Source of the DNA: Escherichia coli
GTDB taxonomy: Bacteria > Pseudomonadota > Gammaproteobacteria > Enterobacterales > Enterobacteriaceae
Reading direction: 5' to 3' (one strand)
NCBI RefSeq assembly: GCF_030013205.1
Contig: NZ_CP122648.1
DNA: 64,000 nt
Positions 9,662 to 53,297 of the stretch are shown one piece after another. The notes under the pieces were generated by a model. The model was not told where the DNA came from. It searched no databases and worked only from the letters and a program-made list of their open reading frames with translations. Each line of letters starts with the position of its first letter. Position 1 is the first letter of the stretch. The translations under genes were made by a program, and so were the position numbers.

Positions 9662-9723
9662 TCACTTATCTGGTTTCCCTTTCCACACGGAAAGGGAAAC
9701 CGAATAACGCGCGAGGAGTATTT

Positions 9724-37333: not shown

Positions 37334-37384
37334 CGCCTGTTATTAACCTGTGGGTCGTAACAGACCCACTAATGGAGAAAGAAG

Positions 37385-37753
37385 ATGATCACCGACAAAC
37401 TGTTGATGTTCTCCGAAGCTCAGGCGGTTACGAATACCGCGGCTTCTACTGACGTAATCGATCTCGGTCCAATTGACGGAAAACGTCGTGATATCGGCGT
37501 GGGTTACCCGCTTGAGTTTTGGGCGCTGGTTAACACAGCCGCCGCGGCAAGCGGTGATGCAACTGTAAACATCCAGTTGCAGGCGAGTGAGAATAACAGC
37601 TCATGGACCACTATTTATGATAGTGGCGCACTGGCAAAGACCGCCCTGACAGCAGGTAAACGAGTTGTTTCTGCAAAGGTGCCTGCCGGTGTTCAGCGAT
37701 ATCTGCGTGTTAACTACTCCGTCGCAACTGGCCCACCGGGACAATTACGTTAA
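37385..37753 (+). CDS. capsid decoration/cement-like protein, possibly 3'-truncated
   Basis: 122 aa. MITDKLLMFSEAQAVTNTAASTDVIDLG...YLRVNYSVATGP resembles Bbp16/epsilon15 gp10-type cement proteins as I recall them. The C-terminus ends abruptly just before another junction. Confidence 0.4.
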   Translation: MITDKLLMFSEAQAVTNTAASTDVIDLGPIDGKRRDIGVGYPLEFWALVNTAAAASGDATVNIQLQASENNSSWTTIYDSGALAKTALTAGKRVVSAKVPAGVQRYLRVNYSVATGPPGQLR

Positions 37754-37794
37754 CGGCAAGCGCCTCTATTTTTGGCGCGGAGCAGGTAGGCAAA

Positions 37795-38391
37795 TTGTTC
37801 TATCTGGAACAGCCTGCAGTGGATTCTGTGCCGGTAACCAGCAATACCGCTGTAGTGGTTCGTGCCAACAGGAACGTCCCGCCATCCCTCAGGAATACGG
37901 CCACCACGAACTGGCAGATGGCGCGCCGGACATTTGGAGGCCTGTCTCATCTTGAAGGCCAGACCGTAAACATTCTCTCTGATGCGAGCGTGGAACCACA
38001 GAAAGTGGTTTCCGGAGGTGCCGTCACGCTGGAATCTCCGGGGGCTGTAGTGCACATCGGCCTGCCAATAACTGCTGAATTCGAAACACTGGATATCAAC
38101 ATTAACGGACAGGAAACGCTGCTGGACAAAAAACAGGTGATCCCCTCCGTTACTCTGGTTGTGAATGCCAGTCGCGGCATCTGGGCGACTACGCCTGGCG
38201 GTAAATGGTACGAATATCCACAGCGTGAATTCGAGTTCTACGATGATCCTGTTGATGATGCTACCGGAAAAGTAGAAGTGAAACTGGACAGTAACTGGGG
38301 CAAAAACGGACGTGTAAAAATCCGTCAGCTTGATCCGTTGCCGCTGTCTGTTCTTGCCGTTATTCCTCGCCTTACTGTTGGGGGATTTTGA
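37795..38391 (+). pseudogene. virion/tail protein, C-terminal remnant
   Basis: The frame opens only at 37714, with no ATG (a TTG at 37795) and no Shine-Dalgarno. The translated ...GGLSHLEGQTVNILSDASV...GLPITAEFETLDI... looks like an internal-to-C-terminal part of a larger structural protein. Confidence 0.4.
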
Positions 38392-38855: not shown

Positions 38856-39400
38856 TGTGCGATCCGGTTATTGCTGGTGGCGCAATGCTCGCCATGAGTG
38901 GCATTCAGGCATACACCCAGTACCAACAGGGAAAGTATGCCTCGAAGGTTGCAGAAGCGAACGCAGATATAGCCACAGCTCAGGCAAATGATGCAATAAA
39001 CAGAGGTAACGCTGAAGCTGAGCAACGGCGCAGAGAGACGCGACAGCGGCTTGGTACACAGGCGGCGACAATGGGGGCGACCGGCGCTGATTTATCTACC
39101 GGTAACGCGCTGGATATATTTGGTGACACTGCTCAGTTTGGCGCTCTTGATTCGCTGACGACGGTGAATAACGCGCAACGCGAGGCTTACGGTTATCAGG
39201 TTCAGGCTGCCAACTATAAAGCAGAAGCCAGTTCAGCCCGTAAACAGGGGAATGTGGGAGCAGCAACAACATTGCTCACTGCGCCTCTGAAGGCATACGG
39301 TGCGTACCAGATGTTTGGTGGGACGTGGAGTCCGTTTACTCAAAGCACCCCCGCGCCAATCAGGGCAGCAGCAGGAACCAGATTACCCGGAGGATTATAA
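38855..39400 (+). CDS. internal virion protein (Ala/Gln-rich)
   Basis: 181 aa. The stop overlaps the next start (TAATG). Composition and position resemble podovirus core proteins. Confidence 0.55.
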   Translation: MCDPVIAGGAMLAMSGIQAYTQYQQGKYASKVAEANADIATAQANDAINRGNAEAEQRRRETRQRLGTQAATMGATGADLSTGNALDIFGDTAQFGALDSLTTVNNAQREAYGYQVQAANYKAEASSARKQGNVGAATTLLTAPLKAYGAYQMFGGTWSPFTQSTPAPIRAAAGTRLPGGL

Positions 39401-42021
39401 TGCCAGTCGTACCAACAGTATCCGGACGTCAGGTTGAGAGCCGTGGAGTTCAGTCAGCAGGCTTGCAGACGTTTTCTCAGCCAGGTATTGGTGATGCTTT
39501 TGTTCGGGCAGGGACAGAGGCAATTGATGTTCTGGGTCAGGCAAAACAGCGCGCCAATATTGCCTTGATTCAGGAGGCATCCCTTAAACTCAGTCAGACA
39601 GGCAGTGATCTGCTGAATAATCCTGAAACAGGATTGCTTAACCTGAAAGGGAAAAATGCTATTGGAAAAGGTCAGGAGTATACGCAGCAGTTTGATGCCC
39701 AGGTCGAGCAACTGGCTATGTTGCTGCCGGATGAACAGGCTCGTAATGCTTTCATGCAGCAGGCGCAGCAGCAGCGCATTCAGTTCACTACGCAGGCCGG
39801 GAGGTACGAAATAGGACAGGTTCGCCAGTATGAGGCGGATATGCAGGATGCGACACTAAAAAACCTATCGATGCAGTTCCGTAACCCGACAATGGCAAAC
39901 CAGGCAGGATTGAAGGCATATCATAGCATCATCGCTTACGGCGAAGCCCACGGCCAGAGTCAGGAAGAGATCGAACAGAACTGGGTTTCGTGGCGCGAGA
40001 ATGCCGCGAACGGTGCGGCGGAGGCGTGGTATGTGCCGATGTATCAACAGATGATGGGTCCGAACGGCAAGATTGAGGTAACCGATACACCGAGTGAGGC
40101 GCAGTTATTCTCTGCAATAATCTGGCAGGAGAGTGGCGGAAATCAGTACGGAAAGGACGGAACACCTCTGGTGTCGCCAAAAGGCGCTGTTGGCGTAGCG
40201 CAGGTGACGGAAGATACTGGCCCCGAAGCTGCCCGCCTTGCTGGCGTGCCGTGGGACCGCGATAAATGGTTGAATGACCCGCGCTATAATGCCCGCTTGG
40301 GGCAAGCTTATTTCGGCGCGCAGATGAAGAAATACGACAATAACCCGGTTCTGGCAGTAGCTGCCTATAACGCTGGCCCAGGAAAGGTTGACGGCTGGAT
40401 TAAACAGATTGGCGACCCGCGCACAGGCGAAGTCAGTAACGCCCAGTTTGCCGCAGCTATCCCATACGACGAGACGCGCAATTATGTGGCAAAAGTAACT
40501 GGCAGTGCTGGAGCTATTCCTGGATCTGCGACGATGGAAAACCTCATCGCACAGCCATTCTGGAACGCCATGAGTCCGGACAAAAAGTCGCAGATGATGA
40601 GCAAGGTTGCTGGCATGTACGACATGCAGGCTTCAGCCGGTCGCGTTGCGCTACAGAGTCGAATGCAGGACGACCTATCCAAAATTGAGGCCGGTAAGCA
40701 GGTGACGCCTATTTCAGCGCACGAATGGGCCGCCGTTATGCCGCTTCAGGCAGCGCCTGCCGAGCGCCTGCAGATGGAAAAAACCTTCCAGCAATACCAG
40801 CAGGCAATGACGCTACAACCTGTTTATCAGACCATTATGCAGGGCAACGTCCAGCAGGGTACCGCCGCCGTGCAGGCAATGGCACCGCAGGAAAACGCCC
40901 CTGACTTTAAATACAAAGCAGAGCTTTATGCATCGGCAAAGGTCAAGCTTGGGCAGGTACTGAAGGCGCGGGAAGCGGATCCGGGGGCATGGCTGCAACA
41001 AAACTCTCCGGTTGTGCAGGCTGCATTCCAGCAGTACCTGAATGACCCTTCATCTGGTGAATACCTAGTTTCCCGCATACAGTCTGAAAAAGACCGCCTG
41101 GGGATAATGAGCAAAAAAGTTTTACCGGAGTCCATGGTCAATGATGTACTGCAGCGTATTGACAACACGCAGGAATCTAGCGTTAAGGCCATTCAGTCGG
41201 TGGCGCAGTCGTTCGGCAAATACTCGGATCAGGTGATGCGGCAGGTGCAAAATAAAGCATTCCCAGCTTTAAAGGTTGTAATGTCTACAGAAAACCAACG
41301 GGCAGCAGATGCGTTGTGGCAAATACGGAATGTACCTACTTCTGATTTGAGATCTGGTTTGGATAAAAACCAGGCAGACAGTGCAGACTCATCGTGGACA
41401 GATCAATTTAAAGATTTTTCTTCAACTCTTATTCCTCAGAGAAATGGTGCTGAAAACTGGACTATTTATAACGAGCAGGGAAAACGCTTGACCTACAACT
41501 ACATGCAGCGCGGAATGTCGGCGTCTGATGCAGCAAAACAGGCGTATCAGGACCTTCTCGGCGAGCAGTACCAGACCAATGGCACTTGGCGGCTACCTAA
41601 TCGTGCAGGGGTAGATATTCGTGACGTTAACGATGGTGCCAATGCGTATCTGAAAAACCTGTCAGCAGATCAGATTATGCCGCTTATTGGTGACCCAAGG
41701 CTACCTGATGAGGTCAACCGTGAGCAGAGTATCTCCCGCATTCGTGATAATGCGCAGTGGGTTACCAACAGCGACGAAACAGGACTTACCCTGATGCTCA
41801 ACGGGCTGATCGTCAACGGTGCCGACGGCAACCCGATTACGGTGACGTTCAACGATCTGGCGAAACTGGGAACAACCAACCGATCAGTATGGAACCGCAT
41901 TACCAAGTTCATTGATACTCCGGTGAAATATACTCCCGGACAGTCTAAGGAATACAGCGCAGAAAGTCAGCGCGACAACCTGATTAACATTTTCCAGAAC
42001 GGCCAGCAATCAGGACGATAA
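39400..42021 (+). CDS. internal virion/ejection protein with lytic transglycosylase (SLT) domain
   Basis: Start moved to ATG 39400 (GGAGG upstream), giving 873 aa. SLT motifs IIWQESGGNQ...GAVGVAQV...AAYNAGPGKV. Confidence 0.8.
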   Translation: MPVVPTVSGRQVESRGVQSAGLQTFSQPGIGDAFVRAGTEAIDVLGQAKQRANIALIQEASLKLSQTGSDLLNNPETGLLNLKGKNAIGKGQEYTQQFDAQVEQLAMLLPDEQARNAFMQQAQQQRIQFTTQAGRYEIGQVRQYEADMQDATLKNLSMQFRNPTMANQAGLKAYHSIIAYGEAHGQSQEEIEQNWVSWRENAANGAAEAWYVPMYQQMMGPNGKIEVTDTPSEAQLFSAIIWQESGGNQYGKDGTPLVSPKGAVGVAQVTEDTGPEAARLAGVPWDRDKWLNDPRYNARLGQAYFGAQMKKYDNNPVLAVAAYNAGPGKVDGWIKQIGDPRTGEVSNAQFAAAIPYDETRNYVAKVTGSAGAIPGSATMENLIAQPFWNAMSPDKKSQMMSKVAGMYDMQASAGRVALQSRMQDDLSKIEAGKQVTPISAHEWAAVMPLQAAPAERLQMEKTFQQYQQAMTLQPVYQTIMQGNVQQGTAAVQAMAPQENAPDFKYKAELYASAKVKLGQVLKAREADPGAWLQQNSPVVQAAFQQYLNDPSSGEYLVSRIQSEKDRLGIMSKKVLPESMVNDVLQRIDNTQESSVKAIQSVAQSFGKYSDQVMRQVQNKAFPALKVVMSTENQRAADALWQIRNVPTSDLRSGLDKNQADSADSSWTDQFKDFSSTLIPQRNGAENWTIYNEQGKRLTYNYMQRGMSASDAAKQAYQDLLGEQYQTNGTWRLPNRAGVDIRDVNDGANAYLKNLSADQIMPLIGDPRLPDEVNREQSISRIRDNAQWVTNSDETGLTLMLNGLIVNGADGNPITVTFNDLAKLGTTNRSVWNRITKFIDTPVKYTPGQSKEYSAESQRDNLINIFQNGQQSGR

Positions 42022-42022
42022 C

Positions 42023-43720
42023 ATGCCAATTTACACAGATGATCCGGGACAGGGAATTAACCAGCCAATTGGCAACGCGCCAGCAGGGCTTGGCGAATCG
42101 CTGCTTTCTTCCCTTAAGCAGGGATTTGAAGAGGGGCCGGTCATGTCCGGCTACCGTTTTGCGCAGGCCGACTCGCTGGCGAATGACCCAAACTCTACAG
42201 TTATCAGTAAGCAGGAAGCGGATGAGCTCCTGAAGCAGTACGGCGTAAAGAGCATAAACGTGCCAGATTCTGGCGTTACGCAGGCTTTTCTCGATCATGT
42301 TATTGCCGAACGCAAAGATTCTCTGGCACGCCAGCAGATCGCGATGTCGGCACCGAGCGGGTGGGTAGCCACGCCGCTTAATTTCGCAGCCAGCCTAGCT
42401 GGTTCAATGGCAGATCCTGGTAACGTGGCGCTGGCGCTGGTTCCGTTCGCTGGAGAAGCAAAGGCGGCTTCTGTGCTTGGCCGATTTGGCGAGCGATTTG
42501 TTGCTGGTGCACGCATGGGGGCAGCGCAGGCGTTGGTGACCGTGCCGCTTACCGGGCTGGCAGCGGCGGCGGAAGGTGACGACTTCACCTATAGCAACGC
42601 GTTGGAAAGTACTTTCTTTAACACGATGGCTGGCGGTCTAATGCATGCCGGCGGCGGCCTTATCGCCGATATCGTGCGACCGCGTCGCGTTCCCGATGCT
42701 GCAACGGGAGAGTCCCCGGCGTTTTCTGGCGATGCGCAGCCAACCCCGGTGATAACGCCTGACAACATTCCGGCGGGCGTGAATATCCCTGAGGTTGGCG
42801 CTAACGCAGATCTGGCGGCGGCCATTTCCAGTGAAGCGGAGAGCTACGCATACAGCCGGGCTTATGACGACGTGGTTCCTGACTATATGGCGCGCCAGCA
42901 GGAGTTACAGAGCGGGCAGATCGGTAACGTTGCCGACCTGCGTGCCGAGCTTGCGGCTAATCAACGTCATGCTGACTCGCTTGATGCGACGCTGCAGCAG
43001 CGCACCAAAAAGTATCAGGGGCAGCGGATGAAGTTTAAGGATGCGCGCTCTAGGGCACTGAAAGAGATTCAGGCCGAGAAAGACGCCATCGCTGCACGCA
43101 ATCAGGAGATCAACACATCGCTGGAGCAGAACGCGACAGCAGAGCAGGCGCGCTGGCGCCAGTCTCAGATTTCCCGCGGCGAGATCCCCGACGACCTGAA
43201 AGTCACCATTTCCGAGCGTGCGCAGCAGATCCTGGACGGCATGCAGATGTCTCCGGTCGCTGGCGCAGTTCGCACTGCCGCAAGCGCCATCAGGGATGCT
43301 GACTGGAGCGTGAACCAGCAGGCGTATCGCGCTGCGCTGGCACACATGATGGAAGGACGTATCCCAGATGTTGAGCCCTTCTATGAACTGCACAAACCGG
43401 CACTGCGTGAACGCGCCATCCATCGCATACAGAACCCGGCACGGCAGGTTGATGAAACGGCTCGCCCAGCAAGCGAAACAGCCGATCGGGTTTATCAAGA
43501 AACGCAAAAGGCAGATCATGAAATTACCGCTGCCGCTGCAGACCTTGATAACGAGCTCAACCTGAGTAACGCACTGCTTGACGATATCGCTGTCGATAAC
43601 CCTGATCTTGCGACCACGTTGCGCCAGAAACTCAATGATATTCGTGCCGACGCCAGCGACAATAGCATGAGCAACGCTTTCCGGGCATTTGCCGCCTGTA
43701 TGATTAACCGGGGGATGTGA
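42023..43720 (+). CDS. internal virion/ejection protein
   Basis: 565-aa intact ORF, tightly packed between two other large virion ORFs, with a coiled-coil-rich C-terminal half. Confidence 0.65.
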   Translation: MPIYTDDPGQGINQPIGNAPAGLGESLLSSLKQGFEEGPVMSGYRFAQADSLANDPNSTVISKQEADELLKQYGVKSINVPDSGVTQAFLDHVIAERKDSLARQQIAMSAPSGWVATPLNFAASLAGSMADPGNVALALVPFAGEAKAASVLGRFGERFVAGARMGAAQALVTVPLTGLAAAAEGDDFTYSNALESTFFNTMAGGLMHAGGGLIADIVRPRRVPDAATGESPAFSGDAQPTPVITPDNIPAGVNIPEVGANADLAAAISSEAESYAYSRAYDDVVPDYMARQQELQSGQIGNVADLRAELAANQRHADSLDATLQQRTKKYQGQRMKFKDARSRALKEIQAEKDAIAARNQEINTSLEQNATAEQARWRQSQISRGEIPDDLKVTISERAQQILDGMQMSPVAGAVRTAASAIRDADWSVNQQAYRAALAHMMEGRIPDVEPFYELHKPALRERAIHRIQNPARQVDETARPASETADRVYQETQKADHEITAAAADLDNELNLSNALLDDIAVDNPDLATTLRQKLNDIRADASDNSMSNAFRAFAACMINRGM

Positions 43721-46269
43721 TGGCAGCAAACGAATTTTTGACGCAGTGCGAGCGCAGTGTAAATGCTGCCGCTGGTCGCGAGCTTTCTTCCGATGAGATG
43801 GAGTCGCTGGTGCGTGACATGAACGACACCACTAGGCGAATTCTGGCGACCAATGAGGCGCTGTCTCTGGAAGAGGCCGCGATGCGCGCAGCGGAAGAAC
43901 TGAGCAATGCCGATATGCTGGCAAAACAGATTGAGGCTCGCAATAAGGCAATCAACACCCGTATTGCCGCACAACGACTTAGAGAGCTTCGTACTATCTG
44001 GAAAGACCGCCCGGATATCGGGCTTGAAGCAATGCTGGTTGGCCGCAACGATGCGCGTACCGGCGCCCGCCGGTCGGTATCTTCGGAGGTGGCGCAACTG
44101 CGCGGCAAGTATCATTCCGGTATCAACTACGATTTTGACCGTGCCGGGCTGGTGCAATTCATCGCCAGCGGCAGCAATGACAGGGAAATTGCCGATGCAA
44201 TGTGGCGCATAGGGCGCGGGCAGTCAACTGACGGTATGACAAAGCAATCCGTAAGCGCTGCACAAATCATCATGAAATGGCAGGAAACTGCGCGCATTGA
44301 TGAGAACCGCGCCGGGGCATGGATACGCAAAGAGCCGGGCTATATAGTGCGCCAGTCACACGACATCATGAAGATCCGCGCCGCAGGTTATGAAGCATGG
44401 CGAAATGCTATTCTCCCGCGCCTTGATGAGCGCACTTTTGACGGCGTGGCTGACCGCGAGCAGTTCATGCGTAACATTTATAACGGGCTGGCTTCCGGCG
44501 TGCATCTTACATCTGAAAAGCCAGATTGGATGAATGGCTTTAAGGGATCGGCGAACGCAGCTAAACGCGCCAGCCAAGAGCGAATTTTGCACTTCAAAGA
44601 TGGTATCTCGTGGCACGAGTACAACCAGCAATTCGGCACCGGCAGCCTGCGAGAGGCGCTGTTTGGTGGCTTAAACAGCGCTGCCCGCACAACGGGCATG
44701 ATGCGCGTACTGGGCACTAACCCACAGAACATGTTTAAGTACCTGACGGACACCATTGCTGAAGATATCAGCAAATCCGGAAGACCGGCAGCGTTGGCTG
44801 ACTACATGACGAAGGTGCGTCGCATTAACCGTACCGTAATGCCGCAGGTTGACGGCTCGCTAAATATTCCTGGCAGCGTAGGCTGGGCCAATGCGTCGGC
44901 GGCTGTACGCGGCTGGTTGCGTATGAGCCAGCTTGGTGGCGCGGTAATCTCATCGTTTAACGACGTGCCTATCGCCGCTACCGAGATGCGCTACCAAGGG
45001 CAGAATTTTATGCAGGCGTTGCTTGGTGCTATGAGAGGCCGCTTCACGCGTTACAACAGCGCGGAGCAGAAAGAGATCCTTTCCTCTATCGGAGTTTATT
45101 CCGACTCCATGACGCAGGAAATCATCCGGCGCATATCTGGTGATGACACGCTGAATGGAAAACTTGGTCGCGCGCAGCAGCTTTTCTTTAAGTACAACCT
45201 CATGAACTTCTGGACCGAGAGCGGTCGTAACAGCAACGCCATGATGATAACCAACTGGCTTGCAAAGAATGCTGACCAGTCTCATGCGCGGCTACCGGAA
45301 GACCTGCGACGCGTGCTGGATCTGCACGGTATTGGCGAACGTGAGTGGGAAATTTTTCGTAACATGGACATGGCCGATAGCGAAGGTCGTAAGTTCATGA
45401 CGACCAGCGGCATGCGCGGCGTGCCTGACGAAGTGATTGCCGGTTATGTAGAGAGTAAGGGGATCAAACCAACGCAGCGCGCTATCGCTGACGCACGCGA
45501 TCAATTGGAAGGGCAGTTGCGCGGCTACATCCTTGACCGCCTGAATATCGCCATGTCAGAGCCTGGCGATCGCACGCAGGCGTTTATGAAGATGGGCACG
45601 GTGCCAGGAACGGTGGCTGGGGAAGCAATACGATTCGCTGGTCAATACAAATCGTTCACTGCAAGCTTCATGCAGAACGTACTAGGACGCGAAGTATTCG
45701 GGCGTGGTTATATTCCTGCTGGGCTTGGTGAGTCGAAAACCGGATCGCTGACGAATGCGCTGCTACGTAACGGGAAGGGGGCTTTCCTTGGTGCTGCAAA
45801 CCTCTTTGTCTGGGCGACTATGTTTGGTTATATCTCCATGCAGTCAAAACTCATGCTGAAAGGGCAAACACCACGCCCGGCAGATGCCAAGACGTTTCTC
45901 GCAGCCGCATCTCAGGGGGGCGGTCTTGGCATCTTGGGTGACTTCATGTTTGGCGAGGTCAACCGCATGGGGGCCGGGCCGGTTACGTCGCTAATGGGGC
46001 CAGCAGCATCGAACGCTGACAGCATTATCACGCTGCTCCAGCAGACCACGAGAGGGGATGCAGATTTGGGTGACTGGTATCGCACGGCACTTGACAATAC
46101 GCCATTCCTCAACGTGTTCTGGCTTCGTACGGCGATGAATGGTTTAATATTGAACCGGATACAAGATGCCCTTGACCCAGGCTCTCTTGAGCGTTATCAG
46201 CGCCGTGTTGAGCGTGAGCAGGGTAACGACTTTTTGATCCCACCATCGCAGTTCATGCTAGGTAAATAA
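43717..46269 (+). CDS. internal virion/ejection protein (largest)
   Basis: 850-aa intact ORF whose start overlaps the upstream stop. Hydrophobic segments near the C-terminus (AFLGAANLFVWATMFGYISM). Confidence 0.65.
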   Translation: MMAANEFLTQCERSVNAAAGRELSSDEMESLVRDMNDTTRRILATNEALSLEEAAMRAAEELSNADMLAKQIEARNKAINTRIAAQRLRELRTIWKDRPDIGLEAMLVGRNDARTGARRSVSSEVAQLRGKYHSGINYDFDRAGLVQFIASGSNDREIADAMWRIGRGQSTDGMTKQSVSAAQIIMKWQETARIDENRAGAWIRKEPGYIVRQSHDIMKIRAAGYEAWRNAILPRLDERTFDGVADREQFMRNIYNGLASGVHLTSEKPDWMNGFKGSANAAKRASQERILHFKDGISWHEYNQQFGTGSLREALFGGLNSAARTTGMMRVLGTNPQNMFKYLTDTIAEDISKSGRPAALADYMTKVRRINRTVMPQVDGSLNIPGSVGWANASAAVRGWLRMSQLGGAVISSFNDVPIAATEMRYQGQNFMQALLGAMRGRFTRYNSAEQKEILSSIGVYSDSMTQEIIRRISGDDTLNGKLGRAQQLFFKYNLMNFWTESGRNSNAMMITNWLAKNADQSHARLPEDLRRVLDLHGIGEREWEIFRNMDMADSEGRKFMTTSGMRGVPDEVIAGYVESKGIKPTQRAIADARDQLEGQLRGYILDRLNIAMSEPGDRTQAFMKMGTVPGTVAGEAIRFAGQYKSFTASFMQNVLGREVFGRGYIPAGLGESKTGSLTNALLRNGKGAFLGAANLFVWATMFGYISMQSKLMLKGQTPRPADAKTFLAAASQGGGLGILGDFMFGEVNRMGAGPVTSLMGPAASNADSIITLLQQTTRGDADLGDWYRTALDNTPFLNVFWLRTAMNGLILNRIQDALDPGSLERYQRRVEREQGNDFLIPPSQFMLGK

Positions 46270-46271
46270 TA

Positions 46272-46832
46272 ATGAAGGCAATTATATTTTTTGTTTCAAT
46301 ATTGATGTCTGCATTTTCTTTTGCAGGGCAAAATGTTAAATGCGAACTTCAATACTTTGGAGATAGCGATAAATTTAAGGTAACTCAGTTTTCTTTTATG
46401 GGGATTCCATCTGATTCATACCTTTATACCTGTGCCGACTGTGGAGGCATCCAGATAAACGTGTTCCCATCTATTCAGACTGTTGCTTCCTACTCATTTG
46501 AAAACAACATTGATTTCGAAAGGAAAATCAATGCTGAATACAACAGAAAAGACATAGCTAAACTTGAGATGGAAAACGTTACTCAAGGCGGGAGAATAAA
46601 ATATTCAATCACCGATACTGGTTTGGCAGAGTTTTACCCAGAGGGCAAAAAGATAAGCTACCTCTACTTTTTAGCCAAGCAACAAAATGGTAAAGAACAA
46701 GTAGGTTATTCAGGATTTGTTACCTCTAACGGGGATAAGTCATGCTCAATTATTGCGACATATCCAGGAAAAGAAATTTCTTTTCTGGGAAGTAAATCTT
46801 TAAGCTACTTTATGAATCATATATCAATGTAG
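46272..46832 (+). CDS. secreted/periplasmic protein, unknown function (accessory gene)
   Basis: 186 aa with signal peptide MKAIIFFVSILMSAFSFA-GQ. Visibly AT-rich compared with the upstream virion genes. It starts 2 nt after the preceding stop. Confidence 0.65.
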   Translation: MKAIIFFVSILMSAFSFAGQNVKCELQYFGDSDKFKVTQFSFMGIPSDSYLYTCADCGGIQINVFPSIQTVASYSFENNIDFERKINAEYNRKDIAKLEMENVTQGGRIKYSITDTGLAEFYPEGKKISYLYFLAKQQNGKEQVGYSGFVTSNGDKSCSIIATYPGKEISFLGSKSLSYFMNHISM

Positions 46833-46845
46833 CGTGACATGTCAC

Positions 46846-46870
46846 AGGCCGCTTTCGCGGCCTTGTTTTT
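46846..46870. terminator. terminator after the 186-aa gene
   Basis: AGGCCGC-TTTC-GCGGCCT followed by TGTTTTT. Confidence 0.8.
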
Positions 46871-47030
46871 AACGAATGCCACCGCCACCCGGGCGGGAAT
46901 CCGCAGAACGCCCACCGCAGCGGGAGCCGTCAGCGGCAGTATCGCTGTCGTGCTGACAACGACCGGCAAAGGCCTGAGTTGAAGCTACCAGAGACAACAA
47001 AACGAACAGTGCAGCAAATGCTTTTTTCAT
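46869..47030 (-). CDS. small secreted Gly/Arg-rich peptide (53 aa)
   Basis: Start placed at ATG 47030. Signal peptide MKKAFAALFVLLSLVASTQAFA, then GRCQHDSDTAADGSRCGGRSADSRPGGGGIR (2 Cys). The Shine-Dalgarno is weak. Confidence 0.5.
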   Translation of the reverse strand: MKKAFAALFVLLSLVASTQAFAGRCQHDSDTAADGSRCGGRSADSRPGGGGIR

Positions 47031-47043
47031 TGTGAAGTTTCCA

Positions 47044-47071
47044 TCTATAAGCCACCTCAATGTGGCGTCAA
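47044..47071 (-). promoter_or_regulatory. candidate sigma70 promoter for the small-peptide gene
   Basis: Minus strand reads TTGACG, 16 nt, TATAGA. The predicted leader is very short. Confidence 0.4.
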
Positions 47072-47100
47072 TGAGTGTAGCACTGGCTTTTGTTTCGTCC

Positions 47101-47124
47101 ACAAAAAAAGCCCGCAGCGCGGGC
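47101..47124 (-). terminator. intrinsic terminator of the 69-aa/288-aa operon
   Basis: Minus strand reads GCCCGC-GCT-GCGGGC followed by TTTTTTTGT. The stem overlaps the stop codon. Confidence 0.8.
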
Positions 47125-47990
47125 TATTCTTTTTTGCTATTTCTTTGATATATATTTCTTCCATTTTTGGTAACACGAATAACGTGCCCCCTGGATTCTA
47201 CTTTGTTATTTGTTGCTTTATATACTTCAAAATCAAACCATGATATATAACTTATTTCGTCAATAGACACCATGATCTCAAGTCCTGGCACTTTCTTTCT
47301 GCTAATTCCTCTTATTGCTGCAGTCCGCTTGACCTGTATTTCTCCTGGATAAGCATTAGTGAATGTGACAGATAAGTTGTCTTTGTTCCTGTATCCTGAC
47401 ATTAAAGGAACAAAAGATATGTGCTGATGCGGACCCTGATTTTCCGTTGGTTCACCAGAACCATTTATTATTCCAACATACACTTTGTTTGATGATAAAG
47501 TAATCAGCATTGGTCGTTTAGGATCCGATTCAATAGCATCAAGCAATAGTAAGTCTAAAGAACCTTGCGAGTAAGTTTTTCGCAGTACTCTGGCCTTCAT
47601 TGCCTCTGTTTTTTGCTCGTAAATATCACGTTTATAAAAACAACCAAGAAGAAAATCTTTCACCCACACAACAGACACATAACACAAAGAGAAGCAAATG
47701 GATGTGGCTGAGAGAAGAAGCAGCCACATGTAAATTCTATCTGTTTCTGGTTTTGATGTTACATTAAAAGTTTCCACCATATCGTGAACTAGGTGAAAAT
47801 CAGGCCATTTATATTTTATAGCGGCTGCAATTATTACTGATGCAACAAGGCAATATGTACCTAGTGCCGCTACTTTCATATAAAGAAGCTGGCCTTCGTG
47901 TCGGTATAAACGGAAATAATGATACTGGTTAGCGGTTATCATAATATAACCGCTAACCAGGATTGGGATAATTAGAAGAGCTAGCAACAC
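47124..47990 (-). CDS. membrane protein with ~170-aa C-terminal soluble domain, unknown function
   Basis: 288 aa with a GTG start preceded by AAGGAAG. Three or four N-terminal TM segments (LLALLIIPILVSGYIMI, VAALGTYCLVASVIIAAAI, IYMWLLLLSATSICFSLCYVSVVWV), then a soluble domain (...PMLITLSSNKVYVGIINGSGEP...SFVPLMSGYRNKD...). AT-rich. Confidence 0.7.
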   Translation of the reverse strand: MLLALLIIPILVSGYIMITANQYHYFRLYRHEGQLLYMKVAALGTYCLVASVIIAAAIKYKWPDFHLVHDMVETFNVTSKPETDRIYMWLLLLSATSICFSLCYVSVVWVKDFLLGCFYKRDIYEQKTEAMKARVLRKTYSQGSLDLLLLDAIESDPKRPMLITLSSNKVYVGIINGSGEPTENQGPHQHISFVPLMSGYRNKDNLSVTFTNAYPGEIQVKRTAAIRGISRKKVPGLEIMVSIDEISYISWFDFEVYKATNNKVESRGHVIRVTKNGRNIYQRNSKKE

Positions 47991-48199
47991 TACTTCCTTA
48001 CAGTGGCAAGATCCTGTTTAACAATTGCAGCAGCGAGACGACGCATCTCCTTAACCTCAGGAAGCTCAGAAATTTGCTGTGATGAGATATATACTCCACC
48101 ACGCTTGTTAACCTGCGCTGACGCCGGAACTTCTGCATTTTTTGCCTGAGGGCTGGGTGCATTATCCCTCGTTTTTGTACGAGCGAACCAAAATCCCAT
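47990..48199 (-). CDS. 69-aa protein, unknown function (first gene of the two-gene operon)
   Basis: ATG with a GGAGGA Shine-Dalgarno. Its stop TAG overlaps the GTG of the 288-aa gene (TAGTG). Confidence 0.6.
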   Translation of the reverse strand: MGFWFARTKTRDNAPSPQAKNAEVPASAQVNKRGGVYISSQQISELPEVKEMRRLAAAIVKQDLATVRK

Positions 48200-48225
48200 A
48201 TATCCTCCTCATGTAAACACATGGT

Positions 48226-48240
48226 TTACCTTTAAGGTAA
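48226..48240. promoter_or_regulatory. phage palindrome site I (TTACC-TTTAA-GGTAA)
   Basis: Perfect half-sites, 27 nt upstream of the 48199 start. On the gene strand the -10-like TAATAT abuts the site (TAATATTACC). Confidence 0.65.
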
Positions 48241-48270
48241 TATTACGCGAATCTACATCACATCGCCAAT

Positions 48271-48298
48271 GATTATTTTAAAGGCACATCCCTGTGCC
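48271..48298 (-). terminator. terminator after the BRO-N gene
   Basis: Minus strand reads GGCACA-GGGA-TGTGCC followed by TTTAAAATAAT. Confidence 0.55.
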
Positions 48299-48306
48299 GC
48301 CGCTCG

Positions 48307-48999
48307 TCAGAAGAACCCTGCCTTGTCGTTGATGTACTCCGCGTGCGTCTGGATATCACGCAGGCATTTGCTCACACCGACGATGTAGCAGAACATGGTG
48401 GTCAACTCCGCCGCCGCGCCCGATACGTCGTGCCCGTCTTCCTGTAACTGGTTCAGCAGATTCATCAGCAGTGAGTTCTCCGTCAGGCCGAGAACACCAG
48501 ACGGAGAATGAATCAGGCTGCGGTAGCCGGGCTTCAGCGGGGCACTGTAGGTTTTGTTCTCTATCTTCATTGCCTGCATCACTGCTGATGCTGTGGCGTT
48601 GGCTACCTGGTCGGCAACCATCTTTATGCGTTCTTCCTGCGGGAGCGAGTTTTTAATGTAACTTCCGGTGCGGCGGATCTGAGGAAGAACCTCACCTGTA
48701 ACCCATTCAAGAAATCTGAATGCTCTCGTTCCCTCAGTCATTGCCTCTTTGCAACGCAGAATAAGGATGTAGAGACCTGATTCTGAAACGATGGATAGTT
48801 CTTGTATTCCACCAGGGGTCTGTATTGAATACAGCCCCTTTTTGTTCCAGCCTTTTTTATCAAGTTTTCTCGCTTGTGTAACATCAATATTCAAAGCATT
48901 GCACACATCTTTGGTGACAAACCAAGGTTCTCCGTCAATCATGAACATACGGATCTGGCAGGATGACTCAAAGGAAAAGATGGAAGGTTTGGTATTCAT
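48307..48999 (-). CDS. BRO-N domain protein (antirepressor-like) with uncharacterised C-terminal domain
   Basis: Start placed at ATG 48999 (MNTKPSIFSFESSCQIRMFMIDGEPWFVTKDVCNALNI...), 230 aa. The N-terminus is a typical Bro-N/KilA-N-type DNA-binding domain. The C-terminal 72 aa are paralogous to the 85-aa ORF at 50145-50402. Confidence 0.75.
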   Translation of the reverse strand: MNTKPSIFSFESSCQIRMFMIDGEPWFVTKDVCNALNIDVTQARKLDKKGWNKKGLYSIQTPGGIQELSIVSESGLYILILRCKEAMTEGTRAFRFLEWVTGEVLPQIRRTGSYIKNSLPQEERIKMVADQVANATASAVMQAMKIENKTYSAPLKPGYRSLIHSPSGVLGLTENSLLMNLLNQLQEDGHDVSGAAAELTTMFCYIVGVSKCLRDIQTHAEYINDKAGFF

Positions 49000-49149
49000 G
49001 GCGATCACCTTTGTAGTTAGGTTAATCACCACCGCTGAGACCAATCAGATGGTGGTGAACTGTGCAGAGTTGGTCTTACCGGCTACAAAGGAACCCGGCG
49101 CACCTTTCGGTGCCCCCACACAGCCCACCATAGAATAGGTGCGCTTTAC

Positions 49150-49262
49150 ACATAAAAAAACCGCTTATGCGGCATATGTGCCTCTGTAGTAATCCGGGAG
49201 ACCAATCCCGGCACTGGATTTTGCCAGTGCCCGATTACTATGGCACAAGAGGAGTGCGATGT
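49150..49262 (-). promoter_or_regulatory. structured leader upstream of the BRO-N gene (three-way junction plus weak terminator)
   Basis: Outer stem 49187-49194 (TAGTAATC) pairs with 49233-49240 (GATTACTA) and encloses two abutting hairpins, CCGGGA-GACCAA-TCCCGG and CACTGG-ATTTTG-CCAGTG. On the minus strand this is followed by CCGC-ATAA-GCGG plus seven U (49154-49172). Confidence 0.4.
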
Positions 49263-49266
49263 AAAT

Positions 49267-49281
49267 TTACCGCAAAGGTAA
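49267..49281. promoter_or_regulatory. phage palindrome site J (TTACC-GCAAA-GGTAA)
   Basis: Perfect half-sites. On the minus strand the candidate promoter is TTGATT, 17-18 nt, TATCAT, with the -10 abutting the site (TATCATTACC). Confidence 0.6.
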
Positions 49282-49359
49282 TGATAAACGCGAAGAAATA
49301 TTAAAATCAACCGTATTTGGTTGATTGCGTTTAACGCTTGATCACCTGAAAGCAAGATA

Positions 49360-49374
49360 TTACCTTTAAGGTAA
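49360..49374. promoter_or_regulatory. phage palindrome site K (TTACC-TTTAA-GGTAA)
   Basis: Perfect half-sites, 20 nt upstream of ATG 49395. Confidence 0.6.
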
Positions 49375-49394
49375 TGTTATTGTGAGGAAAGGCA

Positions 49395-50123
49395 ATGGAA
49401 GTTTTCTGGGTAGTTGTTGGTGTGGTTGCGGTGATTATTTACGTTATCAACCAGAACAAGACTAAGATCTCTGATCGTACGGTCGTTAATCATAACAAAA
49501 CGATAAAGACTGAAGATGGGGAGATAACGATTAATCGTACACAGGTGATAGAACACACCTCCACTCAGTTTCAAAAAACGGGAGATAATGCGCCTAATAT
49601 TTCCGTACCTCCTGCTTATGATAGCGCGGTAATCCAGACATATTATAAACAGCAGGAGTTAGCAAAAGAGAGGCAACTGATTCAGCCAAAGCCGTTTACA
49701 GCTGAGCTTCCACCCGGAGTGTCAACGCGTCCGGCATATCATGGAAGATTCCCTGGTGATGACATATCGTCTCAGTCATCTAAAAAAGCACCTCAGGCAG
49801 TATCAGAGCCAGCAAGAATACCTTCTGTATCGCCGCCAAAAGAAGAATCAGCTAACAGAGTTTCAAGTGGTAGCAAGCAGTGCTTGCGATGCAGAATAAA
49901 CCTTCCATATGAAAAATTCAGGAAATCGTCAAAAAATCCAGATGGATTGACTAAGTGGTGTGCAAGGTGTCTCGATGGCCCAAAGAATACACGCCATATG
50001 AAGTGGTGCCCAATTTGTAATGTCCGCAGAAAACGAACTAGCTTTTACCCTAATAATCAAAATGCGGACGGCTTAATGGCATGGTGCAAAACGTGCTGGG
50101 ACGAGCACAAAGCGAAACGATAG
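49395..50123 (+). CDS. membrane-anchored protein with two C-terminal zinc-ribbon-like repeats
   Basis: 242 aa. N-terminal TM segment MEVFWVVVGVVAVIIYVI, a low-complexity linker, then two units CxxC-x(n)-DGLxxWCxxC (CLRC...DGLTKWCARC and CPIC...DGLMAWCKTC). Confidence 0.65.
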   Translation: MEVFWVVVGVVAVIIYVINQNKTKISDRTVVNHNKTIKTEDGEITINRTQVIEHTSTQFQKTGDNAPNISVPPAYDSAVIQTYYKQQELAKERQLIQPKPFTAELPPGVSTRPAYHGRFPGDDISSQSSKKAPQAVSEPARIPSVSPPKEESANRVSSGSKQCLRCRINLPYEKFRKSSKNPDGLTKWCARCLDGPKNTRHMKWCPICNVRRKRTSFYPNNQNADGLMAWCKTCWDEHKAKR

Positions 50124-50146
50124 GCCGCTAGAGCGGCCTTTTCTTT
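50122..50146. terminator. bidirectional terminator between convergent genes
   Basis: AGGCCGC-TAGA-GCGGCCT followed by TTTTCTTTAT. Confidence 0.75.
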
Positions 50147-50402
50147 ATGTGGTTTGTTTTCGTAATTGTTCGGCACAATAGTCGAGATGTGTTTGCAGAT
50201 CCTGCATAGACATCTGTGAGCTGGTGACGTAGTTAATCAGTGCAGTCAGTTCGGCAAGTGGGCCATCGACATTAAATCCATCCTTATCGAGATCCCGGAG
50301 TAATTTCATCAAGTGCGATCCCTCCACCAGTGATCTGACGCCTCCCGGCGTGTGAATCCTTTCGGTAAATCCGTCTTCCAGTGGATAGTGATACTGCTGC
50401 AT
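50145..50402 (-). CDS. 85-aa protein paralogous to the BRO-N protein C-terminal domain; candidate SOS-controlled antirepressor
   Basis: Start placed at ATG 50402 with a GGAGAA Shine-Dalgarno. 31 of 72 residues are identical to the BRO protein C-terminus in an ungapped hand alignment. A LexA box lies about 20 nt upstream. Confidence 0.65.
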   Translation of the reverse strand: MQQYHYPLEDGFTERIHTPGGVRSLVEGSHLMKLLRDLDKDGFNVDGPLAELTALINYVTSSQMSMQDLQTHLDYCAEQLRKQTT

Positions 50403-50421
50403 CTTATCTTCTCCATGCAAT

Positions 50422-50441
50422 AACTGTATATTTATACAGTA
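50422..50441. promoter_or_regulatory. LexA (SOS) box
   Basis: AACTGTATATTTATACAGTA compared with the consensus TACTG(TA)5CAGTA. CTGT-N8-ACAG is intact, and ACTGTATA-TT-TATACAGT is a perfect dyad. Confidence 0.75.
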
Positions 50442-50478
50442 TCAAATAATTTGTTTGCTATCCAGCACGTTTTGCAAA

Positions 50479-50493
50479 TTACCCGAAAGGTAA
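50479..50493. promoter_or_regulatory. phage palindrome site L (TTACC-CGAAA-GGTAA)
   Basis: Perfect half-sites in the divergent region between the 85-aa gene and the tailspike gene. GGTAATATC provides the -10-like TAATAT toward the tailspike. Confidence 0.6.
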
Positions 50494-50597
50494 TATCTAT
50501 TCGTATTCACAGTCTTTCTATCCATATGTGGTTTTTCAGGTAATAGAATAACCAGATATGCGGCGCAACGGGTGCTGCGACTATCTGGAGATTTAAC

Positions 50598-52967
50598 ATG
50601 ACGGTCTCAACCGAAGTTGACCACAACGAATACACAGGTAACGGCGTTACGACATCATTTCCGTATACCTTCCGTATTTTCAAAAAATCCGACTTGGTTG
50701 TTCAGGTGGTTGACCTTGATGAAAATATTGCTGTGCTGGCTCTTGATACTGATTACACAGTAACTGGTGCGGGAGGGTACAACGGCGGTAATGTAATTCT
50801 GTCGAAGGCGTTGGCTAACGGTTATCAGATTTCTATATCACGAGACCTCCCGGTTACGCAGGAAACTGATTTGCGTAATCAGGGTAAGTTCTTTGCAGAA
50901 GTGCATGAGGATGCGCTTGATAAGCTAACGATGCTGATTCAGCAGGTTCGAAGCTGGTTCCGGCTGGCGTTGTGTAAGCCATCCAGTATAGCGAATTGGT
51001 ATGACGCACTTAATAACTATATTCGTAATCTGAAAGACCCACGCGACCCTCATGATGCAGCTACAAAAAACTATGTAGATACCATTGTATTCTCTAACCT
51101 TAGCCGAACTCTCCGAGTTCCTGAGCCAATAAATCAGTTACCTCCAGCAGCAGTTCGGCGGAATATGATGCCAGCATTTGATAATGATGGTAATGCGATT
51201 GTTGTTATTCCTCCATCTGGGTCAGCATCTGATGTGCTTATTCAGTTAGCAAGTTCTTCCGATGGAAAGGGGGATGCTTTAGTTGCAGTTAAACAACCTT
51301 ATGCTAATTCTGTAACTATTACTCAACATCAGCACAACACCTATCTTCTTACCCCTTACCACTTCGGAGCAAAGGGAGATGGTATTGCAGATGACACTCT
51401 TGCCCTAAACCGCTGGTCCAATTGCGGAGCTAAGGTACTCTATTGGCCAGCAGGAAAATATCTGGTGAGCCCTACAAATGGTGTTTCTCTGGATATGGAT
51501 AACTACCATACAGGGGATTCCGCACTGACGGCGTGCGTAACCGTTCCCTATGGCGTGAAAATTTATACGGCTGGGACAGAAACCCAGTTATGCGTGAAGG
51601 ATGCTGACTCAGCATCGACCGTAGGTCTGGCCGTTAGCTACCCGGAGTCAAGTTATTCCCAGGGAGAAACCGACATCGGAAAATTCATGATTCGCCTGGA
51701 AAACGGAAATGGTCGGTACGGTATTCTTACTCCACTCAGGGAGGAAATGTTCACTGCGCACCGGGCGAAGTTCAAATTAGGAGCGCATTTCGGTCCTCAA
51801 CAGGGGCGTGATGACCTGACGGTGCTACAGTATTCGTGGGTAAATGGCATGCTGATTGGCGACGCTTTTAGCGGCTCAGTGCATGTCACTGGATACGGCA
51901 GCTATAACGTGCAGCAGGTTGAAGGTACGCAATTCCAGTGCGTGGCCGTTAAGATGAAGTCCGTTCGAGGTAACGTAGGTGTAGACATCAGATTCAACAC
52001 AAACAACTGGTGGAAGTTTGTCGAACTGAGTGACGGCGTTGAAGGGTTTGTTGTCAAGGACAGCGAAGGGCTTGGGGCATTTGTTGGAATCGACCTAACC
52101 AACCCAGCCAGCGAGCCAGGTGGATTTATCGATAACGTACACGTCAACGTTAAGCAAAACGGAGTACGAGCCAGAAACAGGCCATCCCTGCAAATCGGAA
52201 ACATTGAAGTCTATAAAAGTGATGGATTTGCCACTGACCTTGTTTACGATGCGGTGCTTCTGGTTGACTGCCAGGAAGTGACTATCAACTCTATTCACGC
52301 AATCGTCGGCAACTCAATCACAAATGCTCAGTCAGTAGTTAACTCGACAAACAGCACATTCCGCCTGAACTCATACTTTGCGCAAAACATCAGGTTCGTC
52401 GATTTTGTGGTTAATAGCCCTGACTGCTATGTCGGAGAGGGGACAATTAACCAGGTCGAGGCAGTTCACTCACTTTCTGGATCACAAAGCAACGACTTCC
52501 ACGGTAGTGATGTTCTGGTTAGATCCTACAGAAACAACGTTCGCCCACTTTACGCAGTGATGGATTCCGCTTTCAACAGGGCAAGGGCGAGGTTTCCACA
52601 AAATACAAGCCTCCAGGTGAGAACCTTTCTCGACTACACTGTGGCAGCAGCTGGGACTTTAACAATAGAACCAAGGCTTGACCCCTCCAGGTACTACATC
52701 ATCATGAGTGCTGGTACAGGTGCCTTCACCTATTCAATTGAGCTGGATAAAGTGTCTGCCGTAGTTGGTGATATTGTTTACATAAAGATAGCCGGGTCAT
52801 CATCTGCTAACCCAACAGTTTTGGTTAAAAATGGTATTGGTGGGACAACGCTCAGCACATTCAATAATATCGGTCCGATTCGTTTGAATTGTGCTTACAG
52901 ATTTAATGAGTCAGGTAACTGGGTGGCCTACTACATTACCCAAAGCGTTGAAACCACTTATGGCTAA
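50598..52967 (+). CDS. tailspike (epsilon15-type N-terminal adaptor domain, beta-helix depolymerase body)
   Basis: 789 aa. N-terminus MTVSTEVDHNEYTGNGVTTSFPYTFRIFKKSDLVVQVVD matches my recollection of the epsilon15 gp20-type head-binding domain. The FGAKGDGIADDTLALNRW motif is typical of pectate-lyase-fold tailspikes. Confidence 0.8.
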   Translation: MTVSTEVDHNEYTGNGVTTSFPYTFRIFKKSDLVVQVVDLDENIAVLALDTDYTVTGAGGYNGGNVILSKALANGYQISISRDLPVTQETDLRNQGKFFAEVHEDALDKLTMLIQQVRSWFRLALCKPSSIANWYDALNNYIRNLKDPRDPHDAATKNYVDTIVFSNLSRTLRVPEPINQLPPAAVRRNMMPAFDNDGNAIVVIPPSGSASDVLIQLASSSDGKGDALVAVKQPYANSVTITQHQHNTYLLTPYHFGAKGDGIADDTLALNRWSNCGAKVLYWPAGKYLVSPTNGVSLDMDNYHTGDSALTACVTVPYGVKIYTAGTETQLCVKDADSASTVGLAVSYPESSYSQGETDIGKFMIRLENGNGRYGILTPLREEMFTAHRAKFKLGAHFGPQQGRDDLTVLQYSWVNGMLIGDAFSGSVHVTGYGSYNVQQVEGTQFQCVAVKMKSVRGNVGVDIRFNTNNWWKFVELSDGVEGFVVKDSEGLGAFVGIDLTNPASEPGGFIDNVHVNVKQNGVRARNRPSLQIGNIEVYKSDGFATDLVYDAVLLVDCQEVTINSIHAIVGNSITNAQSVVNSTNSTFRLNSYFAQNIRFVDFVVNSPDCYVGEGTINQVEAVHSLSGSQSNDFHGSDVLVRSYRNNVRPLYAVMDSAFNRARARFPQNTSLQVRTFLDYTVAAAGTLTIEPRLDPSRYYIIMSAGTGAFTYSIELDKVSAVVGDIVYIKIAGSSSANPTVLVKNGIGGTTLSTFNNIGPIRLNCAYRFNESGNWVAYYITQSVETTYG

Positions 52968-53297
52968 TAGTCATTATTAATATCCTGCAGATGTGACCTA
53001 ACGACAAGCGTCGCCACGATGACAACTACGGAAAGGATGCCGATAACCCACCACATAACTTACCCGCGCAAAATGAATGGATAAAAATCATCCGCTGATT
53101 GATCCTAATCTTTGCATATTTTTCGAAGATGTTACGTTTAGTGGGGCGAAAAAAGCAATTACAGCAATGCCACCTATCGACGTAAGTCCGAAAAAGCCAG
53201 GCTCAGGTCTGCCGCTAATTGGGTATTGATGGCTTACAAGGACTACAAGTGATGCGATAAGCCTGATCACGTCAAAGCAATTATGTCTGTTATTCAT
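52964..53297 (-). pseudogene. O-antigen acyltransferase (acyltransferase-3 family) remnant with internal deletion
   Basis: The N-terminal ~50 aa MNNRHNCFDVIRLIASLVVLVSHQYPISG...GGIAVIAFF fit the FDxxRxxAxxxVxxxH...AVxxFF start of Oac-type acetylases, then the sequence becomes unrelated and stops. A separate 30-aa ORF (53056..52964, MWWVIGILSVVVIVATLVVRSHLQDINNDY) looks like the last TM helix. Confidence 0.5.

Follow-up and report, generated by a model that had tools for sequence, protein, structure and literature searches.

A probable induction-control and cargo region between the ejection-protein and tailspike genes of Uetakevirus prophages

The Rep/Ant switch of phage SPC32H was reportedly described by Kim and Ryu in 2013 and by Kim et al. 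in 2016, with the structures PDB 5D4Z and 5D50. Later papers summarize that the Rep of this switch is tetrameric when bound to DNA, and that an Ant tetramer engages two dimers of Rep via the Rep C-terminal domain, which breaks the Rep tetramer (PMC9638917, PMC9986798). A different type of antirepressor control is found in immI of P1/P7 and in isrK-orf45-anrP of Gifsy-1, where leader RNAs gate antirepressor translation (PMC4825925). In phage P22, the genes sieA, mnt, arc, sar and ant are located between gene 16 and gene 9. The locus analyzed here covers positions 46272-50442 of a 64,000-nucleotide stretch of Escherichia coli DNA (contig NZ_CP122648.1; hereafter, the window) and belongs to an epsilon15/phiV10-like (Uetakevirus) prophage, with three ejection-protein genes (39325-46269) on one side of it and the tailspike gene (50598-52967) on the other. 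This prophage is integrated at the 3' end of guaA and spans window positions 26217-55378, with the att core ATTGAGTGGGAATGATT (published in PMC9782041) found at 26217 and 55362. We propose that the block is probably the induction-control and cargo region of Uetakevirus prophages, including a second switch and repressor-gated cargo; our literature search found no description of this Uetakevirus hotspot.

The block contains seven open reading frames (ORFs), whose products comprise 186, 53, 288, 69, 230, 242 and 85 amino acids (aa), at the coordinates and on the strands listed by the first-pass annotation; RefSeq annotates the same seven in the record of E. coli ETEC4071, which is 100% identical in this region. 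Prophages of this type were present in 569 of 5426 complete E. coli genomes (~10%), and the exact configuration of the block in only 7 of the 5426. In order to compare the locus among relatives, a census of 77 loci was compiled, consisting of 73 from IMG/VR together with those of phiV10, SPC32H, TL-2011b and the window itself. The loci were delimited with an ORF-based anchor, as a DNA anchor at the 3' end of the last ejection gene failed for most of them owing to very divergent alleles.

Firstly, the gene closest to the tailspike gene was considered together with the repressor gene of the prophage, which is located outside the block:

50145-50402, minus strand: ant, 85-aa SPC32H-type antirepressor (match to PDB 5D50_E); genus core gene
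50424-50439: LexA box CTGTATATTTATACAG, a perfect CTGT-N8-ACAG, 22 nt upstream of ant, between the promoter region and the ribosome binding site (RBS)
31583-32167, minus strand: rep, prophage repressor (match to PDB 5D50_A); presumed Ant target and palindrome binder

The 85-aa protein aligned over residues 2-85 with SPC32H Ant (PDB 5D50_E, E=1.3e-47, ~88% identity), and in the SPC32H record ant is annotated at the same position and in the same orientation, directly before tsp. All 77 loci of the census carried ant, and 74 of them had a CTGT-N8-ACAG box within 200 nt upstream of it; the SOS box which had been noticed in front of the 85-aa gene was confirmed as a perfect site. The two-domain Rep, encoded elsewhere in the same prophage, was homologous over its full length to 5D50_A (E=4e-42), and its C-terminal domain matched 5D4Z (4e-20). 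Hence the Ant sequence, the full-length Rep homologue, the position and orientation of ant and the LexA box in front of it are common to both phages, whereas Rep is far more diverged than Ant; for comparison, the ZX5 paper gives 42% for phiV10-type versus epsilon15 repressors (PMC9782041). A further difference is that SPC32H has nothing else at the locus, while the prophage studied here holds 3.9 kb of extra modules, among them a second protein with an Ant domain.

If the mechanism known for the ~88%-identical SPC32H protein is carried over to this prophage, as we infer, LexA would keep ant off at the predicted site, and Ant would be made upon DNA damage. Ant would then bind the C-terminal domain of Rep and break the Rep tetramer, and the phage would be derepressed. 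On these sequence grounds, the 85-aa gene is taken to be the core induction switch of the genus and not cargo, so that the gene adjoining the tailspike gene would be the SOS trigger of induction.

The second switch, an optional one, would be formed by the 230-aa gene and two RNA genes located upstream of it:

48307-48999, minus strand: BRO-N protein, 230 aa, with an Ant-like C-terminal domain; putative second antirepressor (Pfam, PDB, PHROG)
49048-49135, minus strand: C4 antisense RNA (Rfam RF01695, 78.6 bits versus a gathering threshold of 45)
49154-49230, minus strand: isrK-like small RNA/leader (Rfam RF01394, 74.7 bits versus a gathering threshold of 50), with an intrinsic terminator at 49160-49173; isrK itself is an Hfq-binding RNA of Gifsy-1

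The Bro-N domain of the protein (PF02498) scored 51.4 bits against a cut-off of 25.6 (E 1.8e-13), residues 149-225 matched SPC32H Ant (PDB 5D50_E, 9e-14), and the protein also matched phrog_130, 'anti-repressor Ant'. In phage ZX5, overexpression of the BRO-N protein encoded at this locus was reported to cut lysogens ~1000-fold, from 10^9 to 10^6 (PMC9782041). The stretch 49045-49394 (350 bp), previously treated as intergenic, contains both Rfam-level RNA genes, neither of which is annotated in the E. coli, phiV10 and TL-2011b stretches examined. The C4 RNA is co-oriented with BRO-N and lies 49 nt upstream of its AUG. Its hairpin loop UUCCUUUGUAG is complementary to CUACAAAGG, located 9 nt before the BRO-N AUG, and its AGACCAA is complementary to UUGGUCU, which occurs both in the leader and upstream of the BRO-N RBS; the two C4 segments concerned are unpaired. 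When the whole-duplex energy of C4 with the BRO-N RBS (a2/b2-type) was calculated, 13 of 500 shuffled sequences were as good or better. The candidate a1/b1-type target in the leader has both the UUGGUCU and the CUACAGAGG motifs, with a duplex energy not better than that of the shuffles (138/500). The isrK and C4 pair was conserved in the loci of phiV10, TL-2011b, Hafnia and Providencia, and in E. coli, Hafnia and Providencia all the antirepressor variants that were checked had it upstream. These variants differ in their N-terminal domains, of which there are four (Bro-N, AntA, ORF6N and P22_AR_N), and have one common Ant-like C-terminus.

The arrangement corresponds in several respects to P1/P7 immI and Gifsy-1 isrK-orf45-anrP, with which it shares a leader RNA with a terminator, C4 and an antirepressor gene on one strand, as well as C4 loops complementary to a candidate site in the leader and to the downstream RBS. 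In contrast, the upstream ORF coupled to the antirepressor start in those systems (Gifsy-1 orf45, P1 icd-type) has no counterpart here, the antirepressor is a Bro-N::Ant-like fusion probably aimed at an SPC32H-type Rep, and the promoter carries a Uetakevirus palindrome. BRO-N and its RNA leader therefore appear to be a secondary-immunity module of a known type, in which a single promoter would produce the terminated isrK-like leader, then the C4 RNA and then the BRO-N protein. Pairing of the C4 loop with the BRO-N RBS would block translation of the second antirepressor as long as the RNA balance is undisturbed. While the RNA homology and the complementarity are observed, regulation of BRO-N by C4 is predicted from them, and the BRO-N gene would accordingly be a second induction trigger under small-RNA control.

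As a separate observation, three antirepressor modules adjoin one another in TL-2011b (positions 3783-8243): Arc with the sar RNA and a P22-type Ant; isrK, C4 and BRO-N; and a LexA-box ant. The proteins of the first two modules share the Ant-like end.

The window contains 10 perfect and 17 one-mismatch copies of the palindrome TTACC-N5-GGTAA, versus ~1.1 expected. The first-pass annotation had attributed phage palindromes to four units of the block, and four perfect copies were located:

48226-48240: TTACCTTTAAGGTAA, right after the -10-like TAATAT of the 69+288 cassette promoter; putative Rep operator
49267-49281: at the leftward isrK/c4/BRO-N promoter (TTGATT, 18 nt, TATCAT); putative Rep operator
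49360-49374: 21 nt upstream of the 242-aa gene; putative Rep operator
50479-50493: in the divergent ant/tailspike promoter region, in 74/77 loci; putative Rep operator

At most phage promoters, those of the rep-cro region among them, the palindrome overlaps or abuts the -10, and it follows -10-like hexamers directly at the leftward early promoter (TAATTATTACC) and at the 69+288 promoter (TAATATTACC). The rep gene itself is flanked by copies at 31449, 31511, 32223 and 32271. Equivalents of the 50479 copy are present in phiV10 and SPC32H, in which two or three palindromes are also found between rep and the cro-like gene, two at the leftward early promoter, others after the replication genes, and single ones before the terminase, portal, tailspike, holin and int units. 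Among the relatives, the palindrome preceded the first gene of most of the minus-strand cassettes; the series for unrelated cassettes were 7/7, 10/10, 8/8, 5/5, 4/4, 4/4 and 28/28 loci, with the 69+288 cassette accounting for one of them (7/7) and the 242-aa gene for the last. No copy was found upstream of the 53-aa gene in any of its 37 loci.

We infer from these positions that TTACC-N5-GGTAA is the Rep operator. The 69+288 and 242-aa units are read as repressor-gated because their -10 is directly followed by the palindrome which also marks PL, PR/PRM and the late promoters, and the presence of this operator-like sequence at cassette promoters suggests repressor control rather than expression from a silent prophage. 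The 69+288 pair and the 242-aa gene would thus be held off by the repressor while the lysogen is quiescent and come on with the lytic program, and the 53-aa gene, which has no operator, would be expressed constitutively. Several copies of the palindrome occur in pairs, 62 bp (31449/31511 and 34572/34634) or 48 bp (32223/32271) apart, and each pair brackets a promoter; this spacing fits two-site binding by a tetrameric repressor. At 4633, 6373 and 6971, a related Providencia prophage (L086) carries the variant TAACC-N5-GGTTA at the corresponding cassette promoters, in front of the genes homologous to those for the 69-aa and 242-aa proteins; this prophage lacks TTACC-type sites, and its ant homologue lacks a canonical LexA box.

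Regarding the organization of the locus, the interval between the stop codons of the ejection gene and of ant varied across the 77 loci, with 193 bp in SPC32H-like loci as the minimum and 5.8 kb as the maximum, and is 3876 bp here. ORF clustering revealed 61 gene orders, with a fixed order of slots:

Slot 1: plus-strand gene linked to the ejection-gene allele
Slot 2: 53-aa gene, 37/77 loci
Slot 3: minus-strand cassette with mutually exclusive contents; 69+288 aa in 7/77 loci
Slot 4: antirepressor and its RNAs; BRO-N in 52/77 loci
Slot 5: plus-strand slot; 242-aa gene in 28/77 loci
Slot 6: ant, 77/77 loci

The alternatives to the 69+288 pair in slot 3 were YafO-like pairs, DUF4760 and DUF2335 membrane proteins and several unknowns. 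Per-base coverage, for which DNA at least 80% identical in 76 related loci was counted, stepped sharply at terminators and promoters, with successive values of 4, 65, 38, 6, 62, 50, 62, 27 and 75 of 76 loci. The hairpins below, together with the terminator inside the isrK-like RNA, bear out the description of the block as a set of separately terminated units:

46846-46863, plus strand: hairpin that terminates the ejection-gene operon; cassette boundary and linker shared by nearly all loci, 65/76
47109-47125, both strands: bidirectional terminator hairpin; cassette boundary, with a coverage step
50122-50139: terminator hairpin between the 242-aa gene and ant

At this locus, the functional phage SPC32H carries a 46-aa ORF and ant alone (~200 bp from the ejection-gene stop to the ant stop), and phiV10 carries BRO-N and ant alone. 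Both lack the 53-aa, 69+288-aa and 242-aa genes, which are therefore dispensable for virions, and the locus is a cargo site in which these three units assort independently. It resembles moron loci and prophage cargo hotspots in its terminator-bounded cassettes, which vary between near-identical phages, encode membrane or secreted products and in several cases have low GC; unlike in typical morons, most cassette promoters bear the operator-like palindrome of the phage, and the slot order is fixed. A slot map is now defined for comparing cargo between strains.

The cargo genes of the window are as follows:

46869-47030, minus strand: 53-aa secreted peptide, Gly/Arg/Cys-rich, stand-alone; RefSeq coding sequence; phrog_14503; 37/77 loci
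47124-47990, minus strand: 288-aa membrane protein, second gene of the cassette; ~3 long hydrophobic helices and a C-terminal Sm/LSm-like beta-barrel in the AF2 model
47990-48199, minus strand: 69-aa partner, first gene of the cassette; phrog_5739; its stop overlaps the 288-aa start (TAGTG)
49395-50123, plus strand: 242-aa protein of an optional cassette; membrane anchor at the N-terminus, Pro-rich linker of variable sequence and two CxxC-22-CxxC zinc ribbons

The overlap of stop and start codons, and the palindrome upstream, support the earlier reading of the 69-aa and 288-aa genes as one operon. RefSeq places the start of the 288-aa gene at 47879 (251 aa), 37 codons late, and thereby omits 47880-47990; as conservation in the family is strongest in exactly these 37 N-terminal residues, the RefSeq start is judged to be too short. 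A 74-aa frame in place of the 69-aa gene was rejected, since homologues support the 69-aa frame. The AF2 model of the 288-aa protein had a pLDDT of 73. A word-indexed search found 28 clusters of the 288-aa family, and an exhaustive profile search returned 2357 representatives. No Pfam, NCBIfam or PADLOC assignment was obtained for this family, no relevant Pfam match was found in ten distant members, and the pair had no functional PHROG match. In all seven contexts examined, which include sites next to integrases at prophage ends and one chromosomal site, a small gene (57-90 aa) lay upstream of the large one; three of the upstream partners were 34-37% identical to the 69-aa protein, and the three most distant were 16-21% identical and shared only a short motif with it. 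The pair belongs to a large unannotated family, and it is one candidate new two-gene module. Some novelty attaches only to this family and to the putative wiring of the cargo to operators; the parts of the locus are otherwise of known kinds, and no new kind of element was revealed.

Phrog_14503, to which the 53-aa peptide belongs, is described as 'membrane associated protein' in the moron category. The 242-aa protein (phrog_6762) was confined to Enterobacterales, and all 8 of its Cys were invariant in 20 homologues. It weakly resembled EndoVII, HNH and Lar-like families in their zinc-ribbon part, its Pfam match to Stc1 was below threshold, and its gene, where present, always stood beside an antirepressor module. 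Profile searches of the 242-aa and 288-aa families against PDB sequences gave chance-level hits only, the best being the PacI zinc ribbon (E=0.2), and a search of NCBIfam gave no match for the cargo. Our best guess for the cargo is an envelope-directed exclusion or an abortive, toxin-like function, because all products except the 69-aa protein are secreted or membrane-anchored and the slot holds YafO-like pairs in relatives.

A possible, less probable reading of the locus is that the slots form an anti-phage defense hotspot, in which the 69+288 pair would be a toxin-antitoxin or abortive system, the membrane and secreted proteins would be exclusion factors active in the lysogen, and the palindromes would be recombination linkers or weak sites. 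The YafO-like toxin pairs and the DUF4760 and DUF2335 membrane proteins of relatives are consistent with such a hotspot, as are sieA at the equivalent position of P22 and the self-contained nature of the 69+288 pair, which is also seen at the ends of prophages, beside integrases, and at a chromosomal site. However, PADLOC was negative for the window proteins and for representatives of the slots: 10 proteins of relatives (8 from slot 3 and 2 from other slots) gave a single chance-level match (E=0.039). Neither the 69-aa nor the 288-aa protein showed homology to toxin or antitoxin families in Pfam, NCBIfam or PHROG, and the literature search found nothing linking DUF4760 to defense. Moreover, repression in the lysogen is favored by the overlap of the putative operator with the -10/start region at the cassette promoter. 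The induction-control reading can also be taken further, with the cassettes plugged behind a standard scaffold of promoter, operator and terminator and firing only when Rep is inactivated, by induction or during early infection, and with the 69+288 pair founding a two-gene family (~2,400 representative clusters) of induction-coupled membrane toxin, exclusion or abortive modules. We regard this extended version as rather unlikely.

A third reading, which we consider improbable, is that the cargo proteins, and above all the 186-aa protein, are virion, ejection or assembly accessories of the particular ejection-gene allele of this prophage:

46272-46832, plus strand: 186-aa protein with a signal-peptide-like N-terminus; last gene of the ejection operon, after a 2-nt gap; phrog_11983

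Homologues of the 186-aa protein were found in Salmonella, Cronobacter, Klebsiella and Hafnia at 66-92% identity. Its gene always stood 2 nt after the stop of the 848-850-aa allele of the preceding ejection gene (E. coli, Hafnia and Klebsiella), and in a Klebsiella record the tailspike gene follows it directly, which makes it the sole gene between the ejection and tailspike genes there. Other ejection-gene alleles also have their own linked small genes. In our main reading, too, this linkage places the 186-aa gene in the ejection module and not in the mobile cargo. Against a virion role, the cleavable Sec-type signal peptide of its product (by inspection) is hard to square with packaging in a cytoplasmic capsid, and the other cargo genes have their own promoters on the opposite strand and are missing from functional phages. 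The AF2 model of the protein was unusable (pLDDT 43).

The last ejection gene (43717-46269 here; loci L003-L085) was itself seen to occur as several alleles, of 850, 824, 1129 and ~1004 aa, each with one or more linked small genes of its own downstream. The 824-aa allele was only 23% identical to the 850-aa one, and the 1129-aa and ~1004-aa alleles gave no detectable match.

The least probable reading, to which we give very little credence, is that of a single island, AT-rich and of horizontal origin, in which seven accessory genes unrelated to one another were inserted as a block into the late operon without any phage role: the fall in GC to 0.38-0.44 across 46-48 kb, the absence of most of the genes from SPC32H and phiV10 and the occurrence of the exact configuration in only seven genomes speak for it, whereas the per-gene GC spread of 0.355 to 0.574, the presence of sharply bounded modules in as few as 4 and as many as 75 of 76 loci, the role of ant and BRO-N/C4 as regulators of the phage's own repressor, the phage's own palindrome at cargo promoters and the co-variation of the 186-aa gene with the ejection-gene allele all stand against it. 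This was the view of the first-pass annotation, and it is largely refuted by the 77-locus census, as at least five modules assort independently, and the block has neither one common pair of boundaries nor an even composition. The break in an otherwise unidirectional late operon is the genus-wide ancestral layout and not the result of an insertion, since ant is always on the opposite strand here. AT-richness holds for the 186-, 288- and 242-aa genes (GC 0.355, 0.37 and 0.44) and does not describe the block overall (BRO-N 0.49, 85-aa gene 0.47, 53-aa gene 0.57), the tailspike gene outside it having 0.47. The term accessory suits the 53-aa, 69+288-aa and 242-aa genes, and not ant, the BRO-N module or the 186-aa gene; similarly, the label uncharacterized does not fit the 85-aa gene, with its solved and studied homologue, and for the most part does not fit BRO-N. 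The 186-, 288-, 69- and 242-aa ORFs are real genes, because homologues at 33-66% identity exist in other genera.

Several observations weigh against the reading of the block as an induction-control and cargo region. The c4-a1b1 target match (RF03163) that overlaps the isrK-like RNA scored 39.9 bits, below the gathering threshold of 46.7, and no upstream ORF ends on the BRO-N AUGA, as there is just a 28-codon ORF inside c4 with its stop ~40 nt upstream. The palindrome could bind Cro or a late activator instead of Rep, and the single operators at 48226 and 50479 may repress weakly, so that cargo could be expressed in lysogens. None of the seven window proteins matched PADLOC-DB v2, no cargo protein matched any defense, toxin or exclusion family, and the functional guess for the cargo draws on topology and slot neighbors only. 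In addition, the prophage is defective. Alignment with phiV10 showed that window 36989/36990 fuses phiV10 position 39045 straight to 6905, so that the two terminase genes, those for portal and protease and ~2/3 of the major head gene are missing; a second gap corresponds to phiV10 7652-10977 (the defect region in the window being 36989-37834), and the element measures 29.2 kb versus 39.1 kb in phiV10. With terminase, portal and capsid genes lost, the regulatory circuit may be decaying.

When compared with P22, the locus is the sieA-immI position in another podovirus lineage. Both phages share the order of ejection genes, exclusion/antirepressor genes, tailspike, O-antigen modification and att, as well as mixed strands and separately terminated units. 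Genes of the P22 type (Mnt-like, Arc-like and P22_AR_N) occurred in 9 of the 77 loci, including TL-2011b, in which alone the sar RNA was found. However, no Arc or Mnt domain was detected by Pfam in the window proteins, nor a sar match by Rfam in 45500-51500, and the window has no homologue of arc, mnt, sar or sieA; the likeness to P22 is thus one of position and logic only. The result changes the reading of a locus carried by ~10% of complete E. coli genomes (569/5426).

Two further features were observed outside the block. A 69-codon ORF at 53088-53297 on the minus strand, with the start MNNRHNCFDVIRLIASLVVLVSHQY, resembles by eye the N-terminal stub of an O-antigen acyltransferase; it sits where phiV10 and SPC32H have oac, and the remainder of the gene is apparently missing, also as judged by eye. 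In the host DNA upstream of guaA, a 2680-aa ORF is located at 13479-21521 on the plus strand.

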